From the sequence record MG589383: a DNA stretch of 64,000 nt; one strand, written 5' to 3'. This document shows, piece after piece, positions 23,252-54,528 of this stretch (position 1 is its first letter; every line of letters begins with the position of its first letter). The position numbers and the translations under genes were made by a program. Below the pieces are notes generated by a model. That model saw nothing but the letters and a program-made list of their open reading frames with translations. It was not told the DNA's origin and did not search any database. The DNA comes from Shigella phage phi25-307.

Positions 23252-23430
23252 GGCTTAATTTCCTTCGCAATTGAACAGAAGATACCACGGTCACAAAGCA
23301 TTTCACCAATTTCTGGATATTTGATCGAACGGTACCAAACATCTAGGCTTGAAACTCTGGTTATCTGTACTGCATTACCGCTGACAGAATAGTACTGGTC
23401 GACCTTAATTTCTTTATCTTCAATTGTCAT
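23248..23430 (-). CDS. hypothetical protein (60 aa)
   Basis: internal ATG with RBS GAGGAAAATAAA. Confidence 0.4.
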   Translation of the reverse strand: MTIEDKEIKVDQYYSVSGNAVQITRVSSLDVWYRSIKYPEIGEMLCDRGIFCSIAKEIKP

Positions 23431-42614: not shown

Positions 42615-42923
42615 TCAATTAGAAAATAAATTTATCCAAGATTTTTCTTTAATCAAAAATGGGTCGGAATTAAACGCCATTAAACTTTGAGTAATTAATC
42701 CCTTAAATGACCCATCAATAAATTCCATTTTGAAATGTGGAATACTAGTCATCAACCGTGCATTAGGAGCAGTACAAAGAACATGCTGCCCTGCGAACGG
42801 ACCTTTAGTCAAACGATATCGTTTAGGTTTAAAATGGTAAATCTCATAATTTTCTACAAGAGCCCTTTTATTGCATACTGGGCTGTTATAACAATACTCA
42901 AAAACTTCAATAGTGGTCATCAT
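42615..42923 (-). CDS. hypothetical Cys-rich protein (about 102 aa)
   Basis: ORF, start trimmed to the ATG at the upstream stop. Confidence 0.4.
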   Translation of the reverse strand: MMTTIEVFEYCYNSPVCNKRALVENYEIYHFKPKRYRLTKGPFAGQHVLCTAPNARLMTSIPHFKMEFIDGSFKGLITQSLMAFNSDPFLIKEKSWINLFSN

Positions 42924-43459
42924 TGCATTCCAATCACAAAAAATTGAGGACGAGCAATACCGCCGATGCAATATTTGCTTTTGCAGCAGTGCTGTACTGA
43001 TTTAATATGGACATTGTAAATCTTATCCATATCAGGAGCTTTAATAGGCTCGTCAATTATATACAGAATACGAGAAAGCGTTAATCCACGGAATTTAGAA
43101 CCTTCATTGCCAATAAAACTACGGACAGAATCAGTAAATAAACGGAATCGAATATCATCGCTAGAATAACGAGAAAATTCTTTTTTAATGTTGCCAACAG
43201 AAATTTTAGCATAAGCTGAAGTATTAGAAAGAACAATAACTGTTCCACCATCGAGCAGCCAATTAGCGGCAAAATTAGTTACTGCAGTTGATTTACCAGA
43301 TTGTCTGCCACCATCTAAACGAAGTGTACAGTACTGCTTGAGTACGTCTTCAAATGGTGGGGCATAACCGTTCTTACAAATTTCTTCTACTCTAGCATCA
43401 GAATGGTGTGTAAAAGCATTCATCAGGGATAGATAAGGTCCAGTTAAAAATGTTCTCAT
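42920..43459 (-). CDS. hypothetical protein with P-loop-like GGRQSGKST motif (179 aa)
   Basis: ORF with conserved structured leader upstream. Confidence 0.5.
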   Translation of the reverse strand: MRTFLTGPYLSLMNAFTHHSDARVEEICKNGYAPPFEDVLKQYCTLRLDGGRQSGKSTAVTNFAANWLLDGGTVIVLSNTSAYAKISVGNIKKEFSRYSSDDIRFRLFTDSVRSFIGNEGSKFRGLTLSRILYIIDEPIKAPDMDKIYNVHIKSVQHCCKSKYCIGGIARPQFFVIGMQ

Positions 43460-43632
43460 TTAGTTTCTCTTAAGGTTGGGGCCATTCCGTGGCACATGTT
43501 AGGTCCTTCGACTCGCTATGTAAACCCATTACCGCACTTGGGCTCGACCTTATTACAGGTTGGAAAAGGTACATCACTCAGAGGACTCGACGTTCATAAG
43601 GAGAGGTTGCGTTTCCCTTTATTAGACAAGAA

Positions 43633-43962
43633 TTATACTCTAGGCTTTTGAGCTTGTTTGGTATTGGATTCCCATGCGGCTTTGGTAATTTTGTTAGCGG
43701 CATAACCAAAGGCACTAGATAGAACACCTTTAGAGTTGAATACATCCAATCCAATAAGTACACCTGCTGTGTTAAATTTAGGAGCAAAGTACGCATTAGT
43801 TTTAGAAAGAGCTTTTTTCAATTCAGGGTCTTGAACCAAGCCATCAAAAACGCCTTTACCATTTACTTTATATGTTACTTTGGGATTTTTAGCTTCTTCG
43901 ATAGCAGCTTTCTGTTCCGCAGATAATGTAACTTCAGTGATAAACTCTTGATATGTTTTCAT
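43633..43962 (-). CDS. internal-protein-like capsid-targeted protein (CTS MKTYQEFITE)
   Basis: N-terminal MKTYQEFITE capsid targeting sequence; ATG at 43962. Confidence 0.6.
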   Translation of the reverse strand: MKTYQEFITEVTLSAEQKAAIEEAKNPKVTYKVNGKGVFDGLVQDPELKKALSKTNAYFAPKFNTAGVLIGLDVFNSKGVLSSAFGYAANKITKAAWESNTKQAQKPRV

Positions 43963-44075
43963 TTTGTTCTCTCTAGGTTTAGACCATTCCATGGCCCATG
44001 AATTGTCCATTTTCCGTATTTACCACTCCAAGTAATTATGAATATACTATCACAATTCTAGGAGAAAGTAAACTG

Positions 44076-44378
44076 TTATTTACCTTTAATTACTTTAGCT
44101 GCTTCGATAGCCGCTTGCTGAAGGTCGTCCATAGACATACCGAATTTAGAAGCAAAGTTATCAATTTTCTTTTCGACCGCATTCAAAGGCTTGGCCTGTT
44201 TACCTTCATTAGCGCCTGGAAGAGCGAGAATACGCTCTTTGTCAATATAAAGGCTTACAAGTTTCTTACGGTCTTTATCGGACAAATCATGAAATGAATG
44301 GGCCTTTTTATTTATAGCGGCTTCTAATTTACCTGCACTCACTCGAGCTTCAGTAATAAATTCTTGATATGTTTTCAT
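44076..44378 (-). CDS. ipII: internal protein, IPII-like (CTS MKTYQEFITE)
   Basis: CTS leader; 100 aa, size as T4 IPII. Confidence 0.55.
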   Translation of the reverse strand: MKTYQEFITEARVSAGKLEAAINKKAHSFHDLSDKDRKKLVSLYIDKERILALPGANEGKQAKPLNAVEKKIDNFASKFGMSMDDLQQAAIEAAKVIKGK

Positions 44379-44419
44379 ATGTTTCCTTTAAATGTAAATA
44401 GGCCTAAGTACAGGCCTTA

Positions 44420-44998
44420 TTAATTACCACGGGCTGCATTAGCAACGGCATAAGCGTACTGAACATTAGCGTCTTTAAACGTACCTTTAGAGGTATCTAT
44501 TTCTGCCTTAAAGCCGCCTTTAGCCATAACATCAGCAAATTCTTTACGGAAAGCCATTGCGTCAAGACCTTTCCATGATGATTTGTGCTTGGCGAATTCA
44601 AGACCAGCGTAGTTGACAGCCTTAGCTAATTTATTATCAATAACCCATTTACCGGCTTTAGGCACAAACTTCGGTCCTTTTTGTTTAGAGAACAGTTTTA
44701 AATTCCAGCGACGAAGATCACTGTCGGCTTTAACAAAAGCTGCATCTAAGTTACTAGCAACAACATCTTCAATATGAGCAAATTTAAGTCCGTCAACTTC
44801 AATATTTAGGTCGGTACGCCAGCGAAGTCCTTCCCAAGCGAAAGCTTTAAAGTCGGAAGCTTTTGTAGCTAAGTATCGTTCAAGTGGAGCAGTTTTAGGG
44901 TCAAAGCCGTTTCCACCACGATAAGTCCACTCGTCCTTATTAATGCCTTGAGCTTTTCCTGCAAAGGCCTCGGCGATAAATTCTTTATATGTTTTCAT
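44420..44998 (-). CDS. ipIII: internal protein, IPIII-like (CTS MKTYKEFIAE)
   Basis: CTS leader; 192 aa, size as T4 IPIII. Confidence 0.55.
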   Translation of the reverse strand: MKTYKEFIAEAFAGKAQGINKDEWTYRGGNGFDPKTAPLERYLATKASDFKAFAWEGLRWRTDLNIEVDGLKFAHIEDVVASNLDAAFVKADSDLRRWNLKLFSKQKGPKFVPKAGKWVIDNKLAKAVNYAGLEFAKHKSSWKGLDAMAFRKEFADVMAKGGFKAEIDTSKGTFKDANVQYAYAVANAARGN

Positions 44999-45024
44999 TT
45001 TTGTTCCTATTGTTTTAATTCATG

Positions 45025-45339
45025 TTATTCTTTAGGGAAGTTTTTAGAGTATGCGTCATAAAGTTTATTGCCGATGCGACGGAAGACTCTAGCTGCAAAA
45101 CGGTTTTCAGGGTTTTTAATCATGATTTGCATCATGTAAGTTCCTGCATCCGAAAGAGCTTCTTCATAGTACCCATTAATTTCTTTAAGAGTCCTACGTT
45201 TACCACCAGGACCATCAACAGTAATTTTCCATTTACCTGTAGAAGTGCGGCTCGGTGGCTCAACTTGTTCAATCCAAATATAACCACCTTCAACGCGTTG
45301 ATTGGCGGATTCTGCAATAAATTCTTTATACGTTTTCAT
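45025..45339 (-). CDS. internal-protein-like capsid-targeted protein (CTS MKTYKEFIAE)
   Basis: CTS leader; 104 aa; own early promoter. Confidence 0.6.
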   Translation of the reverse strand: MKTYKEFIAESANQRVEGGYIWIEQVEPPSRTSTGKWKITVDGPGGKRRTLKEINGYYEEALSDAGTYMMQIMIKNPENRFAARVFRRIGNKLYDAYSKNFPKE

Positions 45340-45369
45340 TTTTGTTTCCTTGTTTGTTTTGATAGAGTA

Positions 45370-45399
45370 ATTATACCATATTAATACTTAAGCGTAAAC
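45370..45399 (-). promoter_or_regulatory. early promoter (GTTTAC-18-TATAAT)
   Basis: gtaattatacca ... gtaaac. Confidence 0.5.
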
Positions 45400-45402
45400 T
45401 GT

Positions 45403-45663
45403 TTAAGCTTTACCGCCAGAAATAATTCCGAAGTTGTTAAAATCATATCCAATATCGTCAACATCTACTTTAGGGCTTGCTACAACATAAGCAATTTCAC
45501 CACGTTTTGCATAGGTGTTGATTTCTTTACCATCGCCGCCTAGGAAAGAATACCCATTACGTTTTAATGAGCCAAAGTCTTCCGCATCACCAATGAAAGC
45601 TTTAACTTTAAATTTATGACCTTCGGCATCTGCTTCAGCGATAAATTCTTGATACATTTTCAT
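45403..45663 (-). CDS. internal-protein-like capsid-targeted protein (CTS MKMYQEFIAE)
   Basis: CTS leader; 86 aa. Confidence 0.6.
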   Translation of the reverse strand: MKMYQEFIAEADAEGHKFKVKAFIGDAEDFGSLKRNGYSFLGGDGKEINTYAKRGEIAYVVASPKVDVDDIGYDFNNFGIISGGKA

Positions 45664-45669
45664 TTTTCC

Positions 45670-46083
45670 TTAGTAAATTGATTTACCATAGTATTTGTAC
45701 CAAGTAGGACGCTGAGCAATTTTTTCATCTAAGCGTGCTTGACTTATCGCAATGGACGCTTCGGACGGGACATAATTATTACGAAATTCGGCAGGGATGT
45801 CGGAAATATCCTGGACAGTCGTGTCCTTGATTTTGAAACCACGTTTCAAGCATTCAGCGATTAACTCGATTTGACGTAAACGTAAAAATTCGAGTTTGTC
45901 GTAAAAGAATGTTACATGACCTGTGCCTAAGATAAATGTTGGAGAGATTTTAAAATCCTTTACACGTTTACCGTTTTGAACATGTTTACGGACTGCACCA
46001 AATACACGTGGTAATTCACGATACTCGGCCATAAGATGTTGGTCGGTCAGTTCAGAAACAAGTGTTAAATTGATACGGGTCAT
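45670..46083 (-). CDS. denV: endonuclease V (pyrimidine-dimer DNA glycosylase)
   Basis: [34 protein letters not shown]... matches T4 DenV; ATG at 46083. Confidence 0.9.
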
Positions 46084-46110
46084 AATTTCCTCCAAGTAGT
46101 TGATGAATGT

Positions 46111-46140
46111 ATAGTATCAAAACCCTTGGAGGAAGTAAAC
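46111..46140 (-). promoter_or_regulatory. early promoter (GTTTAC-18-TACTAT) for denV
   Basis: gaatgtatagtatc ... gtaaac. Confidence 0.5.
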
Positions 46141-46141
46141 A

Positions 46142-46423
46142 CTATTTTTCTGAAGCGCCTGAAATATATTTTTCAAGACGTTGTTTCATCAACGAGCCGT
46201 TCTTAGCGATTTCTTCTGGTTTATCGCACATACGCAACAAGGCTTCAAGCTTAACGATATCACTGGTGCGCTCAAATTTGCGAGTATCTATCTTACTAGC
46301 AAGTTCAGAAATACGTGCTAATAGACTTTCAGCTTCAACCAAAGCTGCACCTAGCTTAGTTGCAAATGTGTCAGTAGCTTCGTTAAGAATAGATTCTGAT
46401 AAAAATTCACTATATGTTTTCAT
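46142..46423 (-). CDS. internal-protein-like capsid-targeted protein ([13 protein letters not shown])
   Basis: CTS leader at internal ATG 46423. Confidence 0.55.
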
Positions 46424-46908
46424 ATATACGCTTTCCAAGTTCCTGTTTTAAATGTCGAGATTACGCGTTTCGCGCGATTAGGTGTCTGACGATACCATTT
46501 AGATTGGGCTAGATTTACTGCCGCTTCGTCCCAACGTTTCTGTTGAAGCATACGAAGAGAATTAGTAAAACCAGCGACGCCTGCTACACCCATTTGGAAG
46601 ACCATATTGACCAATGCACATCGACGAACTGCATCTAAAGAATCATATACCGGTTTAAGTTTAGCATTACCCAAGATTCCGCGAACAGCTTTATCAACGT
46701 CTTCATTAAATAACTTTTCAGCCTCATCAAGGGTAATTGTACCGTTGCATTTACGTCCGATCATTCTGTCAAGTTCAGCTTTAGCTACGGCTAAAGACGG
46801 GTTCTTTGTTACTAAATGACCTATGCCAATCGTCCAAAAGCCTTCAGTGTCTTTGTATAAAGTCAGTCTAAGACCTTCGTCATTACGAAGCATTTCAAAT
46901 ATATTCAT
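46420..46908 (-). CDS. e: lysozyme (endolysin, T4 e)
   Basis: [27 protein letters not shown]... matches T4 lysozyme with catalytic E11/D20/T26 context. Confidence 0.95.
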
Positions 46909-54371: not shown

Positions 54372-54448
<77 letters not shown>

Positions 54449-54454
54449 AATATA

Positions 54455-54528
54455 TGACCCAGACCAGATTCGAACTGGTAACCTTTCCCTTATGAGGGGA
54501 CTGCTGCTAACCGTTGAGCTACAGGGCC
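54455..54528 (-). tRNA. tRNA with CAU anticodon (Ile-lysidine type or Met)
   Basis: manual fold: T-arm ACCAG-TTCGAAT-CTGGT, anticodon loop CTCATAA; acceptor has one U-U mismatch and the D-arm is atypical. Confidence 0.6.

Follow-up and report, generated by a model that had tools for sequence, protein, structure and literature searches.

A conserved non-coding element, predicted to form a pseudoknotted RNA, upstream of vs.8 in Shigella phage phi25-307 and in other enterobacterial phages

The leader of T4 gene 32 is a pseudoknotted translational operator that serves one autoregulated gene. T4 rnaC and rnaD (species 1 and 2), ROOL and GOLLD are phage structured RNAs that are co-located with tRNA genes, and Rfam includes models for ROOL and GOLLD. 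The HDV-like theta ribozymes of gut phages are also tRNA-associated, and their defining catalytic C is found at the first J4/2 position (PMC10879173). The mobile PeSL cassettes of T4-type phages consist of a terminator stem-loop and an early promoter, are about 50–70 bp long and are lineage-specific (PMC2839356, PMC4122927).

We analyzed a stretch of 64,000 nucleotides (the window) from Shigella phage phi25-307 (sequence record MG589383). Its segment 43481–43620 (minus strand) belongs to a family of conserved non-coding elements and has the B-type form; it extends from the 5′ strand of helix P1 to the end of a 3′ hairpin (coordinates verified). Like the gene 32 operator, the element is a conserved, predicted pseudoknot at the 5′ end of a T-even early/middle mRNA, followed by a less structured stretch up to the ribosome-binding site. 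Unlike the operator, with which it has no sequence similarity, it precedes unrelated genes and is free-standing in other phage families. It resembles PeSL in being a short conserved non-coding module that borders variable ORFs in hyperplastic regions and is a substrate for modular shuffling, but it is a predicted transcript domain of ~140 nt with pseudoknots and its core is shared across families. It shares a location beside tRNA genes with rnaC/rnaD, ROOL and GOLLD. However, it has no sequence similarity to rnaC/rnaD and lies outside the tRNA cluster in T4-like phages; ROOL and GOLLD are far larger, and no Rfam model matches any form of the element.

With the 4227 models of Rfam release 15, the window gave no hit overlapping the element at the gathering threshold, nor was there one at E ≤ 10 in the interval 43380–44120. 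At E ≤ 1 the T4, rV5-like, ~47-kb-contig, L040, L074 and Pylasvirus forms were all without a match. ARAGORN reported only tRNA-Arg and tRNA-Met at 54372–54528 in the window and no tRNA or tmRNA at the element; tRNA/tmRNA models overlap the element in none of the loci. In the comparison with T4 rnaC/rnaD, the core motif was missing from NC_000866 70908–71171 and our model R1 had no match in locus L075. No published description of the element was found in the literature on vs.8, on T4 non-coding RNAs or on the core sequence. No similarity to E. coli DNA of 11 nt or more, as mimicry of the host or an antisense target would give, was found. Shorter resemblances, of 6–9 nt, were given no weight as evidence; they are to the HDV ribozyme (CGGUAAUGG), the anticodon loop of tRNA-Tyr (CUGUAA), part of tmRNA and the 530 loop of 16S rRNA (GCGGUAAU).

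Every gene in the region is on the minus strand. The element starts 13 nt past the stop codon (43633–43635) of an internal-protein-like gene (43633–43962, 109 aa, N-terminus MKTYQEFI, phrog_3966) and ends 21 nt short of the ATG of a vs.8 homologue (42920–43459), which encodes a 179-aa P-loop protein (GGRQSGKS). The main finding is this gap, rather than the 40-nt repeat in the leaders of the two genes. The original prediction described the gap (43460–43632) as ORF-free and GC-rich, and both points were confirmed: it contains ORFs of 35 to 51 aa only (one 72-aa ORF just touches its edge), and its GC content is 46.2% versus a window mean of 37.1% (sd 3.8), a value reached by 1.3% of the 173-nt windows in the 64 kb. 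The count of three CTCGAC copies in the gap was incorrect, as only two are exact (43543 and 43586) and the remaining one reads TTCGAC. Across the window the hexamer shows no enrichment (20 observed versus 14.8 expected; 12 of 100 shuffles reach 20), and we dismissed the repeats as a meaningful feature.

By blastn the element was matched in 1075 phage records. Roughly a thousand genomes of T4-like phages, spanning at least eight genera, carry it almost unchanged upstream of vs.8. It is also found in rV5-like, phAPEC8-like and N4-like (Pylasvirus) phages, and a near-invariant 31-nt core is common to Straboviridae, Vequintavirinae, Stephanstirmvirinae and Schitoviridae. Outside the T4-like phages the element lies in or beside tRNA gene arrays, which are on the same strand, or has its own promoter or terminator. 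Locus L058 carries a TTGACA-16-TATACT promoter for the element; in the rV5-like phages a promoter stands between the element and the next gene; and in locus L040 a promoter-like site and an intrinsic terminator are found at the element, with no gene after the terminator. The downstream feature can be vs.8, an internal-protein gene, phrog_3330 behind its own promoter, a tRNA array or a terminator without a gene, and in every context the element has the orientation of the flanking genes and tRNAs. Tandem copies are present in KLB31 and PEi20. A partner was also sought via gene neighborhood: no vs.8 homologues were found outside T4-like loci, and phrog_3330 is confined to rV5-like loci. The element is absent from the E. 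coli genomes searched and had one chance match in 185,579 bacterial species genomes; since the pattern scans demanded the exact core, the apparent limit to enterobacterial phages may partly be a search artefact. Conservation of the element exceeds that of its neighbor: it is 79–88% identical in phages whose vs.8 coding sequences are only 59–63% identical, and the Vs.8 protein beside the frozen core drifts down to 36% identity. The distance from the end of the core to the vs.8 ATG is 60–71 nt in 33 of 38 distinct lineages.

The 31-nt core, CCUGUAAnAAGGnCnAGCnnAAGnGnGGUAA, is almost invariant. In the window it is found at 43529–43559 (minus strand, CCUGUAAUAAGGUCGAGCCCAAGUGCGGUAA) and includes most of hairpin Pa and an 18-nt conserved loop (43529–43546). 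The core has one match in the 64 kb (0.00 expected), and model R1 matches 43515–43573 with 74.6 bits (E 7e-20). In the predicted fold, helix P1 (43565–43620) pairs AAAGG (43616–43620) with CCUUU (43565–43569) and encloses J1/2 and P2, a variable hairpin domain (43571–43607). Helix P3 (43525–43564) closes the core by pairing UCCA (43561–43564) with UGGG (43525–43528) and contains hairpin Pa (43547–43560, ACCU-GUAAUA-AGGU). The pseudoknot helix PK (43514–43611) pairs CGC (43609–43611), located in J1/2 within P1, with GCG (43514–43516) downstream of P3, and so ties the strand inside P1 to the strand past P3. The helices are short (3–5 bp). Because the core is invariant it carries no information on pairing, and predicted folding energies are no better than those of shuffled sequences (z = +1.96 for the window form, −1.5 to +1.9 for other forms). 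These z-scores are uninformative, since the fold is pseudoknotted and the energy model cannot score it. The case for the fold rests on covariation and the pseudoknot, not on folding energy.

The compensatory base changes support a double pseudoknot formed by P1, P2, P3, Pa and PK. P1 pair 7–54 is G-C in 13 sequences and C-G in nine. The outer P2 pair is A-U (15), C-G (9) or G-C (1) and is never unpaired. In alignment A3, PK pair 13–109 is C-G in 10, A-U in seven, U-A in four, G-C in two, U-G in one and unpaired in one sequence, and pair 14–108 is G-C in 13 and C-G in nine. In alignment A2 (36 sequences drawn from all families), one P3 pair is C-G 27 times and G-C seven times and another is C-G (24), U-A (6) or G-C (5), while Pa is paired throughout (100%) and shows a single exchange, from A-U to G-C. 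The A2 covariation score is above all 500 shuffles, and 92.8% of the A3 cells are paired compared with 81.7% in shuffles (0 of 500 reach this value) and 20–47% in slid controls, figures to be read with the many close kin in these alignments and a shuffle control that ignores phylogeny. Pairing reaches 97% in the A-type form, which has three double changes. In the rV5-like forms CCAG/CUGG and GUGAGGG/CCCUUAC, judged by eye, appear to be the PK equivalents. The fold is not kept in every copy, as P3 and PK are mismatched in a chimeric one (KLB31 copy 1, PKO111 copy b). Three other pairings were dropped: a local hairpin GCCCA/UGGGU in the core, which is broken by the variants GCGCA and GCAAA, and a GUAA/UUAC hairpin past the core and a switch pairing of UAAGGU with ACCUUA near the Shine-Dalgarno sequence, both unconserved in relatives.

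In T4-like phages only, the domain continues into a 3′ module (43460–43524, minus strand), which consists of the J segment UUUACAUA (43517–43524), the PK 3′ strand, a GGA (43504–43506), hairpin GCCAcggaaUGGC (43481–43493, −4.0 kcal/mol) and a weak Shine-Dalgarno sequence AAGAGA (43466–43471). It contains copy A (43460–43499) of the repeat, the 40-nt leader before the ATG at 43459. Copy A and the leader before the ATG at 43962 (43963–44002) were originally estimated to be about 70% identical; we found 30 identities in 41 aligned positions (73%) with one gap, and the score of the best local block (27/34) was reached by none of 2000 shuffles. Motif CATGNGCCAYGGAATGGYC occurs exactly twice in the 64 kb versus 0.08 expected. 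Both leaders can form a GCCA-NGGAA-UGGY hairpin (43481–43493 in copy A, 43983–43995 in copy B) in which, as originally described, a C-to-U change turns a G-C into a G-U pair. The copy B hairpin can be extended to an 8-bp stem (−8.0 kcal/mol).

Copy B (43963–44024, minus strand) is a truncated A-type (T4-like) relic. It has the 3′ module only: the last 62 nt of another element, of the T4 type, join the internal-protein-like gene at its ATG, and model R1 found no core there. It is closer to the vs.8 leaders of T4 and locus L059 than to copy A (GGUAAAUACxGAAAAUGGACAAUUCAUGxGCCAxGGAAUGG). The gene behind it is among several tandem genes that share the MKTYQEFI 5′ end (repeat family D1). Upstream of copy B is a T4-early-promoter-like site, GTTTACT-N17-TAGTAT (44044–44073, minus strand), and a 31-nt repeat of it with 81% identity is found upstream of denV at 46110–46140 (family D9). 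In Klebsiella phage PKO111 an identical promoter drives a complete element and vs.8. The site (TTTACT-N17-TAGTAT, 44044–44072) has one mismatch to the PeSL consensus TTTACW-N17-TAYWAT and falls below the threshold of a generic promoter scan. It has no stem-loop directly 5′ of it, and it borders a variable internal-protein gene as a PeSL would. By analogy, the PeSL concept appears to explain how copy B was duplicated, but it does not account for the element. A- and B-type 5′ domains have been swapped independently of the vs.8 phylogeny. Cassette recombination, as is typical here, accounts best for the likeness between the two leaders, better than independent selection, with copy B as the relic. 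The original prediction is supported in part: a translational control element shared by the two genes is unlikely, a conserved structured non-coding RNA candidate is upheld, and the alternative term "small RNA" is fair for the relatives in other families. The strongest constraint lies upstream of the repeat, in the pseudoknotted domain with the invariant core.

In the T4 annotation the region is carried as the first 40 codons of Vs.8 (NP_049732), and it could be argued that the segment is a decaying, frameshifted 5′ end of vs.8, conserved through recent shared descent. Indeed, QPVIRSSPSAVMG and MCHGMA can be recognized as peptides in two other frames of the window. This reading is already contradicted by the data. 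The homologue in the window is 89% identical to residues 41–219 of T4 Vs.8, and its residues 3–179 match phrog_1488, a 177-aa profile in keeping with the short form of the protein (searches of Pfam, NCBIfam, PADLOC and PDB gave no informative match, only weak ATPase and terminase-N ones). In the window the 40 extra codons of T4 fall into three different frames. Among 44 distinct regions upstream of vs.8, that of T4 alone places a start codon in frame before the core, and a T4-specific 9-nt duplication holds the ORF open there; in the other 43 lineages the frame is broken and the sequence is still kept. None of the three frames across the core is open in all lineages: a TAA immediately precedes the core frame in the ~47-kb-contig and Pylasvirus forms, and TAG or TAA stops block the other two. 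The codon at the start position varies from ATG (T4) to GTG (WG01), CTG (L013) and ATA (L060). The segment is more conserved than the intact coding sequence alongside, its helices are kept by compensatory changes, and the core is present in phage families without vs.8. A conserved peptide QPVIRSSPSAVMG and a 7-codon mini-ORF (MNVESSE) were rejected on unconserved starts and frames. The region fails as N-terminal coding sequence of Vs.8 and as a conserved small peptide or upstream ORF; it is non-coding, and Vs.8 proper probably begins with MRTFL. A DNA-level element, such as a recombination hotspot, protein-binding site, promoter or homing-endonuclease target, would fit its position at the borders of shuffled gene cassettes in a hyperplastic region, the exchange of A- and B-type 5′ domains apart from vs.8 and a promoter-like TTTACA-17-TAACAT inside the element. 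We consider this very improbable, as G-U pairs and compensatory changes in five helices, including the pseudoknot, are unexpected for a duplex DNA site and the orientation is strand-consistent everywhere. The internal −10-like hexamer is unconserved in relatives, and there is no endonuclease gene near.

Among the RNA-level alternatives, the most credible, though in our judgment unlikely, is that the repeated 40 nt form a shared translational operator, in which a repressor would bind the GGA-loop hairpin and the GGA upstream to coordinate vs.8 and the internal-protein gene. CsrA sites are GGA motifs in hairpin loops, and host CsrA would be the candidate. The 3′ module has two GGA motifs near the ribosome-binding site, one of them in a hairpin loop, which is a resemblance in sequence. 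As the original prediction required, the hairpin is conserved in relatives (GCC-ANGGAAY-GGC), and it is kept in nearly all T4-like vs.8 leaders together with AUGGAY 12–18 nt upstream. Some leaders (e.g., WG01, L022 and L046) have a third GGA in the Shine-Dalgarno region, and the module was retained on copying in front of the internal-protein gene. The covariation proposed as a check is absent, however: the three G-C pairs of the hairpin never vary and the fourth pair is broken in two of 12 A-type sequences. In phage PNJ-6 the copy B hairpin is inverted and UCC replaces GGA, phage S143_2 has the same internal-protein gene behind a different leader, the module is missing from the non-T4 family members, and recombination alone accounts for the two-copy similarity. 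A riboswitch, in which the aptamer for an ion or small molecule would be the pseudoknotted domain and the expression platform would be the 3′ hairpin with the ribosome-binding region, is improbable. It would agree with the compact predicted fold, its covarying variable helices and invariant junction and loop nucleotides, with the fixed spacing to the start codon in T4-like phages and with the tandem copies in KLB31 and PEi20. A riboswitch is expected in the 5′ UTR of related genes, but vs.8, internal proteins, phrog_3330 and tRNAs are unrelated; the rV5-like promoter lies between element and gene, and the L040 element runs into a terminator without a gene. No mutually exclusive structure is conserved, and a metabolite sensor would not usually be limited to the phages of a single host group. 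We rate slightly lower still a self-cleaving ribozyme or RNA-processing element that would part the vs.8 mRNA from upstream cistrons and free RNAs from tRNA arrays. The strand order P1a-PKa-hairpin-P1b-hairpin-PKb is that of the nested double pseudoknot of HDV-like ribozymes (P1-P2-P3-P1-P4-P2), the size is similar, and HDV-like theta ribozymes are likewise found in phage genomes beside tRNA genes (PMC10879173). In place of the catalytic C, the first nucleotide past the P3 3′ strand is U in both forms (B-type UUUACAUA, UUACAAU; A-type UAAAUA). The element also lacks P1.1 (the L3 CC/J1/4 GG pairing), its conserved nucleotides are not near L3 and J4/2 but in the equivalent of P4, a helix that HDV-like ribozymes can do without, and the Rfam HDV and other ribozyme models match no form.

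The reading that we prefer, with a probability of roughly 0.6, is that 43481–43620 (minus strand) is a member of an undescribed family of structured non-coding RNA elements of virulent enterobacterial phages, which would dock a host factor and form the vs.8 leader in T4-like phages. The sequence comparisons show the conservation of the element, its lack of coding capacity, its covariation-supported fold, its genomic contexts and the recombination behind copy B; from them we infer that it is probably transcribed as a functional RNA and may have a host-factor partner and an effect on vs.8 expression. The RNA would fold as a compact double pseudoknot, with P1 around P2, P3 around Pa and the 18-nt loop, and PK joining the two. 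In T4-like phages this domain, followed by the GGA, the GGA-loop hairpin and a weak ribosome-binding site, would be the 5′ leader of vs.8; in the other families the same core would be a free-standing small RNA, in tRNA arrays or with its own promoter or terminator. The invariant loops may bind a conserved host macromolecule; this would account for a frozen core in unrelated phages with nothing but their host group in common. Such binding may, in the T4-like phages, be linked to how stable the downstream cistron is or how well it is translated. The host factor is our best guess and is argued from host range. A bolder version, which we put forward tentatively and at less than even odds, is an unrecognised class of phage RNA, a double-pseudoknotted domain of ~100–140 nt with an invariant 31-nt core and a biochemical activity of its own. 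This could be the sequestering or redirecting of a conserved host factor (in translation, RNA decay or tRNA-targeting defence, for example), or catalysis or ligand sensing by a new fold.

T4 is among the best-annotated viruses, yet it carries this region as 40 codons of a hypothetical protein, and the over-extension of Vs.8 and similar over-long ORFs have been copied into many genome records. For tracing how cassettes are exchanged at the hypervariable internal-protein locus, the element is a concrete marker. T4 allows a direct test of the question, vs.8 being a small gene whose region differs among related phages. Such RNAs are compact and portable and could serve phage engineering. A frozen RNA core in four unrelated phage families that share only hosts suggests a strong host-directed function, and new mechanisms of regulation, anti-defence or catalysis may be sought among such RNAs.

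The window phage is T4-like and belongs to the genus Mosigvirus, and its top DNA matches are the Escherichia phages PNJ-6 and S143_2. The genes flanking the element are all on the minus strand. In transcription order denV (45670-46095) comes first at the locus, followed by five internal-protein-like genes with a common MKTYQEFI 5' end (the last at 43633-43962), the 173-nt gap (43460-43632), the gene of a 179-aa P-loop protein homologous to T4 Vs.8 (42920-43459), and the vs.7 and grcA homologues. Each of the five tandem proteins (43633-45663) starts with MKTYQEFI(A/T)E. The underlying DNA repeat, family D1, covers about 44 nt around the start codon and is present in six copies (43633-45663 and 46391-46434); it is a likely substrate for the gene shuffling seen between relatives.

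The original prediction drew attention to similar leaders of about 40 nt before ATG 43459 (vs.8; copy A) and ATG 43962 (last internal-protein-like gene; copy B). The similarity is real: 30 of 41 positions align, the best local block has 27 of 34 identities, and none of 2000 shuffles reached the score. The common motif occurs exactly twice in 64 kb versus 0.08 expected, and the GCCA-NGGAA-UGGY hairpin can form in both copies. The gap had been described as ORF-free and GC-rich, and we found only ORFs of 35 to 51 aa and 46.2% GC, compared to 37.1 ± 3.8% window-wide. One detail was wrong: of three claimed CTCGAC hexamers only two are exact, and there is no enrichment of this hexamer.

The T4 annotation gives Vs.8 a length of 219 aa, of which the first 40 (MRDSRQPVIRSSPSAVMGKYRNGQFMCHGMAQTYRAYREE) come from the T4 counterpart of the gap. 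In the window two indels relative to T4 (+5 and -7) scatter these residues across three reading frames, and sequencing error does not account for the disruption. In a set of 44 distinct vs.8 upstream regions, T4 alone has an in-frame start upstream of the conserved core, and its close relatives carry a TAG stop at the position of T4's 9-nt duplication. The putative vs.8 start codon varies between phages (ATG, GTG, CTG or ATA), and the protein family profile phrog_1488 (177 aa) matches the short Vs.8 form. It was concluded from the split frames, the single in-frame start, the varying start codon and the profile length that the gap region is non-coding. The T4 Vs.8 annotation is most likely over-extended. 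Public records stretch the vs.8 ORF into the RNA element in T4 (L003:4254-4913, NC_000866 64253-64912; 219 aa), KLB31 MVRL130 (L079:1355-2026; 223 aa) and PNJ-6 (L001:2521-3099; 192 aa), against about 177 aa for the family. In many records vs.8 also bears the label 'endoribonuclease', apparently a transfer from nearby regB.

The gap segment was found by blastn in 1075 phage records, about as many as contain vs.8 (1009). The 5' domain of the element (43481-43620) has two forms, A-type (T4) and B-type (the window). Where phages with the B-type form have diverged in Vs.8 (36-46% identical as protein, 59-63% as coding sequence), they still share 79-88% identity over ~143 nt of the element. A 31-nt core, CCUGUAAnAAGGnCnAGCnnAAGnGnGGUAA (43529-43559), is almost invariant. 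Outside the T4-like phages the core is found in Vequintavirus (rV5-like), Phapecoctavirus and N4-like Pylasvirus, and in metagenomic phage contigs of ~47 kb and others. In these genomes it falls in unannotated DNA, inside or adjoining arrays of tRNA genes that share its strand. In an rV5-like metagenomic contig (L058) the element has a TTGACA-16-TATACT promoter of its own on one side and the next gene's promoter on the other; at locus L040 a promoter-like site before it and a strong intrinsic terminator after it imply an RNA of roughly 180 nt. The core pattern gave one chance match only in 185,579 bacterial and archaeal species genomes, and the element segment gave no match in 5,426 E. coli genomes. 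As far as the searches reached, the element is restricted to virulent phages of enterobacteria.

In the proposed fold (all minus strand), P1 pairs AAAGG (43616-43620) with CCUUU (43565-43569) and encloses a short strand, J1/2, and the variable hairpin domain P2 (43571-43607). The annotated T4 vs.8 start codon falls within the P2 stem of the A-type form. P3 (UCCA 43561-43564 with UGGG 43525-43528) follows directly and encloses the Pa hairpin (43547-43560) and an 18-nt invariant loop. The pseudoknot helix PK joins CGC in J1/2 (43609-43611) to GCG downstream of P3 (43514-43516). The central P3 pairs, compared over 36 distinct cores that cover all families, are C-G 27/G-C 7 and C-G 24/U-A 6/G-C 5; none of 500 shuffles reaches the covariation score, and slid controls are lower. 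In 25 B-type elements 92.8% of cells are paired, versus 81.7% in shuffles (0 of 500 reach the value) and 20-47% in slid controls. One PK pair in this set shows five pair types (C-G 10, A-U 7, U-A 4, G-C 2, U-G 1), a second PK pair and a P1 pair are each G-C 13/C-G 9, and the outer P2 pair is A-U 15/C-G 9/G-C 1. The A-type 5' domain is simpler and different (GGGAA...CCUCAU-loop-AUGAGG...UUCCC); the A-type form is 97% paired, with three double compensatory changes. Read by eye, candidate PK equivalents are CCAG/CUGG and GUGAGGG/CCCUUAC in rV5-like forms, and a candidate pairing of P2 loop with 3' tail is CGGAA/UUCCG or CGGUU/AGCCG in the ~47-kb-contig and L074 forms. In nearest-neighbour energy the element folds no better than shuffles (z +1.96 for the window form), so the structural case rests on covariation; such energies fit a pseudoknotted fold rich in tertiary contacts.

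The core covariance model R1 recovers every other family member and places a single copy in the window (74.6 bits, E 7e-20); a marginal match at 23361-23396 (minus strand; 15 bits, E 0.2) is most likely noise. In KLB31 and PEi20 it detects weaker second tandem copies (26.6 bits) with compensated P3 and PK pairings. Such tandem elements lie upstream of vs.8 at L034:5087-5256 (PEi20), L079:1254-1448 (KLB31) and L090. In PEi20 and KLB31 the first copy is extended by a long stretch at its 3' end, and that of KLB31 also appears to be a chimera whose P3 and PK do not match; the second copy has a shortened P2 and a compensated PK (ACCA/UGGU).

In T4-like phages only, the domain with the core is followed by a 3' module consisting of UUUACAUA, the PK 3' strand, a GGA motif, the GCC-ANGGAAY-GGC hairpin and a weak Shine-Dalgarno sequence. 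The core ends 60-71 nt before the vs.8 ATG in 33 of 38 lineages. This module is what was introduced above as copy A. Copy B (43963-44024) aligns more closely with the A-type module of T4 and locus L059 than with copy A, and the R1 search of the window found no core in it. It is preceded by an early-promoter-like GTTTACT-N17-TAGTAT; Klebsiella phage PKO111 has the same promoter before a complete element and vs.8. We conclude from its A-type-like sequence, its missing core and the PKO111-type promoter before it that copy B is a second, truncated element, joined at the ATG with an internal-protein gene. The promoter-like site belongs to a 31-nt repeat (GTTTAC...TAGTAT/TATAGTAT) at 44043-44073 (before copy B) and 46110-46140 (before denV), identical to the sequence before the PKO111 element. 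A promoter-like TTTACA-17-TAACAT also lies inside the element (43496-43524, minus strand); its TTTACA coincides with the conserved UUACA of the J segment. Since relatives do not share the -10-like hexamer, the site is probably fortuitous.

S143_2 has an unrelated leader on the same internal-protein gene. In PNJ-6 (L001:3565-3640) the copy-B hairpin (window 43983-43995) is present as the reverse complement (GGUCAUUCCAUAGCC) with loss of the GGA loop motif, and the Shine-Dalgarno region matches copy A exactly; the hairpin change looks like inversion of a palindromic stem-loop. The A- and B-type 5' domains are independent of vs.8 phylogeny, as the A-type occurs in a Mosigvirus contig whose Vs.8 is 97% identical. 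Taken together, these three observations show that leaders at this locus are exchanged by recombination, and the repeat of the original prediction, taken alone, is an ordinary product of it. The same behaviour has been reported for PeSLs, mobile regulatory cassettes in hyperplastic regions of T4-type phages (PMC2839356, PMC4122927). A bidirectional terminator-like hairpin, AGGCCUGUACUUAGGCCU, between two internal-protein genes (44400-44417) also resembles a PeSL; in S143_2 it occurs with its ATTTACATTTAAAGGAAAC leader before a different internal-protein gene.

Other sequences were noted at loci of non-T4-like phages. The motif (A)GUGCUCUU(U/A)(U/C)CGUUGUG(A/G) lies both before and after it in ~47-kb contigs and Pylasvirus (L028, L036, L038, L051, L062, L070, L081, L083). 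Its first 8 nt match the E. coli rrn boxA (UGCUCUUU). One copy is predicted to pair with a downstream GUCACAAC...GGUAAGAGCA, giving an extended closing stem reminiscent of the processing stalks of rRNA. In rV5-like loci (L017:1930-1975, L041, L058) CCCUUAGAGGGCUUGAUAGUGCACC precedes the element, and rV5b-type contigs have a near copy (CCCAUAGAGGGCUUGAAAGUGCUGG) after it; the motif may be part of a longer RNA of ~200 nt. In Pylasvirus KpCHEMY26 the non-coding gap downstream of the element (L081:2999-3134, L062:1617-1667) gives weak, sub-threshold Rfam matches to the permuted tmRNA and tmRNA models (33.7 bits, E 0.003), which may reflect a tRNA-like fragment or another unannotated RNA. L058:7591-8803 contains two adjacent group I intron matches (43.3 and 40.4 bits) below the gathering score of 50.

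No Rfam family matches any form of the element. A tRNA or tmRNA identity was ruled out, and the element is unrelated to T4 rnaC and rnaD. A ribozyme is improbable. The nested double-pseudoknot strand order is that of HDV-like ribozymes, of which the theta ribozymes adjoin phage tRNAs. However, the required catalytic C is U, P1.1 is absent, and the conserved nucleotides sit in the equivalent of P4, which is dispensable in those ribozymes; the element is therefore outside the HDV-like family. A classical riboswitch is also unlikely, given that unrelated genes lie downstream and that a promoter or terminator comes after some copies. A site acting at the DNA level is very improbable, as it leaves unexplained the strand-consistent G-U pairs and the compensatory changes in five helices. 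That the segment is a decaying coding remnant is the least probable of all.

An independently functional operator at the GGA hairpin is a tentative possibility and compatible with the main reading. The resemblance of the 3' hairpin to a CsrA-type GGA hairpin is one of sequence. The covariation check on it found three invariant G-C pairs, no covariation, and a fourth pair broken in 2 of 12 sequences, which argues against this operator; conservation of the hairpin is thus sequence conservation.

Neither Rfam nor the full-text literature, searched also with the core sequence and with subscription papers outside its coverage, holds a prior description. The family fails every membership test that was applied and is new in that sense; a new mechanism is not implied. 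The element is non-coding, strongly constrained and pseudoknotted. We give the overall reading, a constrained pseudoknotted RNA that binds a host macromolecule, a probability of about 0.6, function being its weak link. In T4-like phages the element forms the leader of vs.8; in other phages it would be a small RNA standing by itself. Its invariant loops may be docking sites for a conserved host macromolecule, whose binding in T4-like phages would be coupled to the stability or translation of the next cistron.
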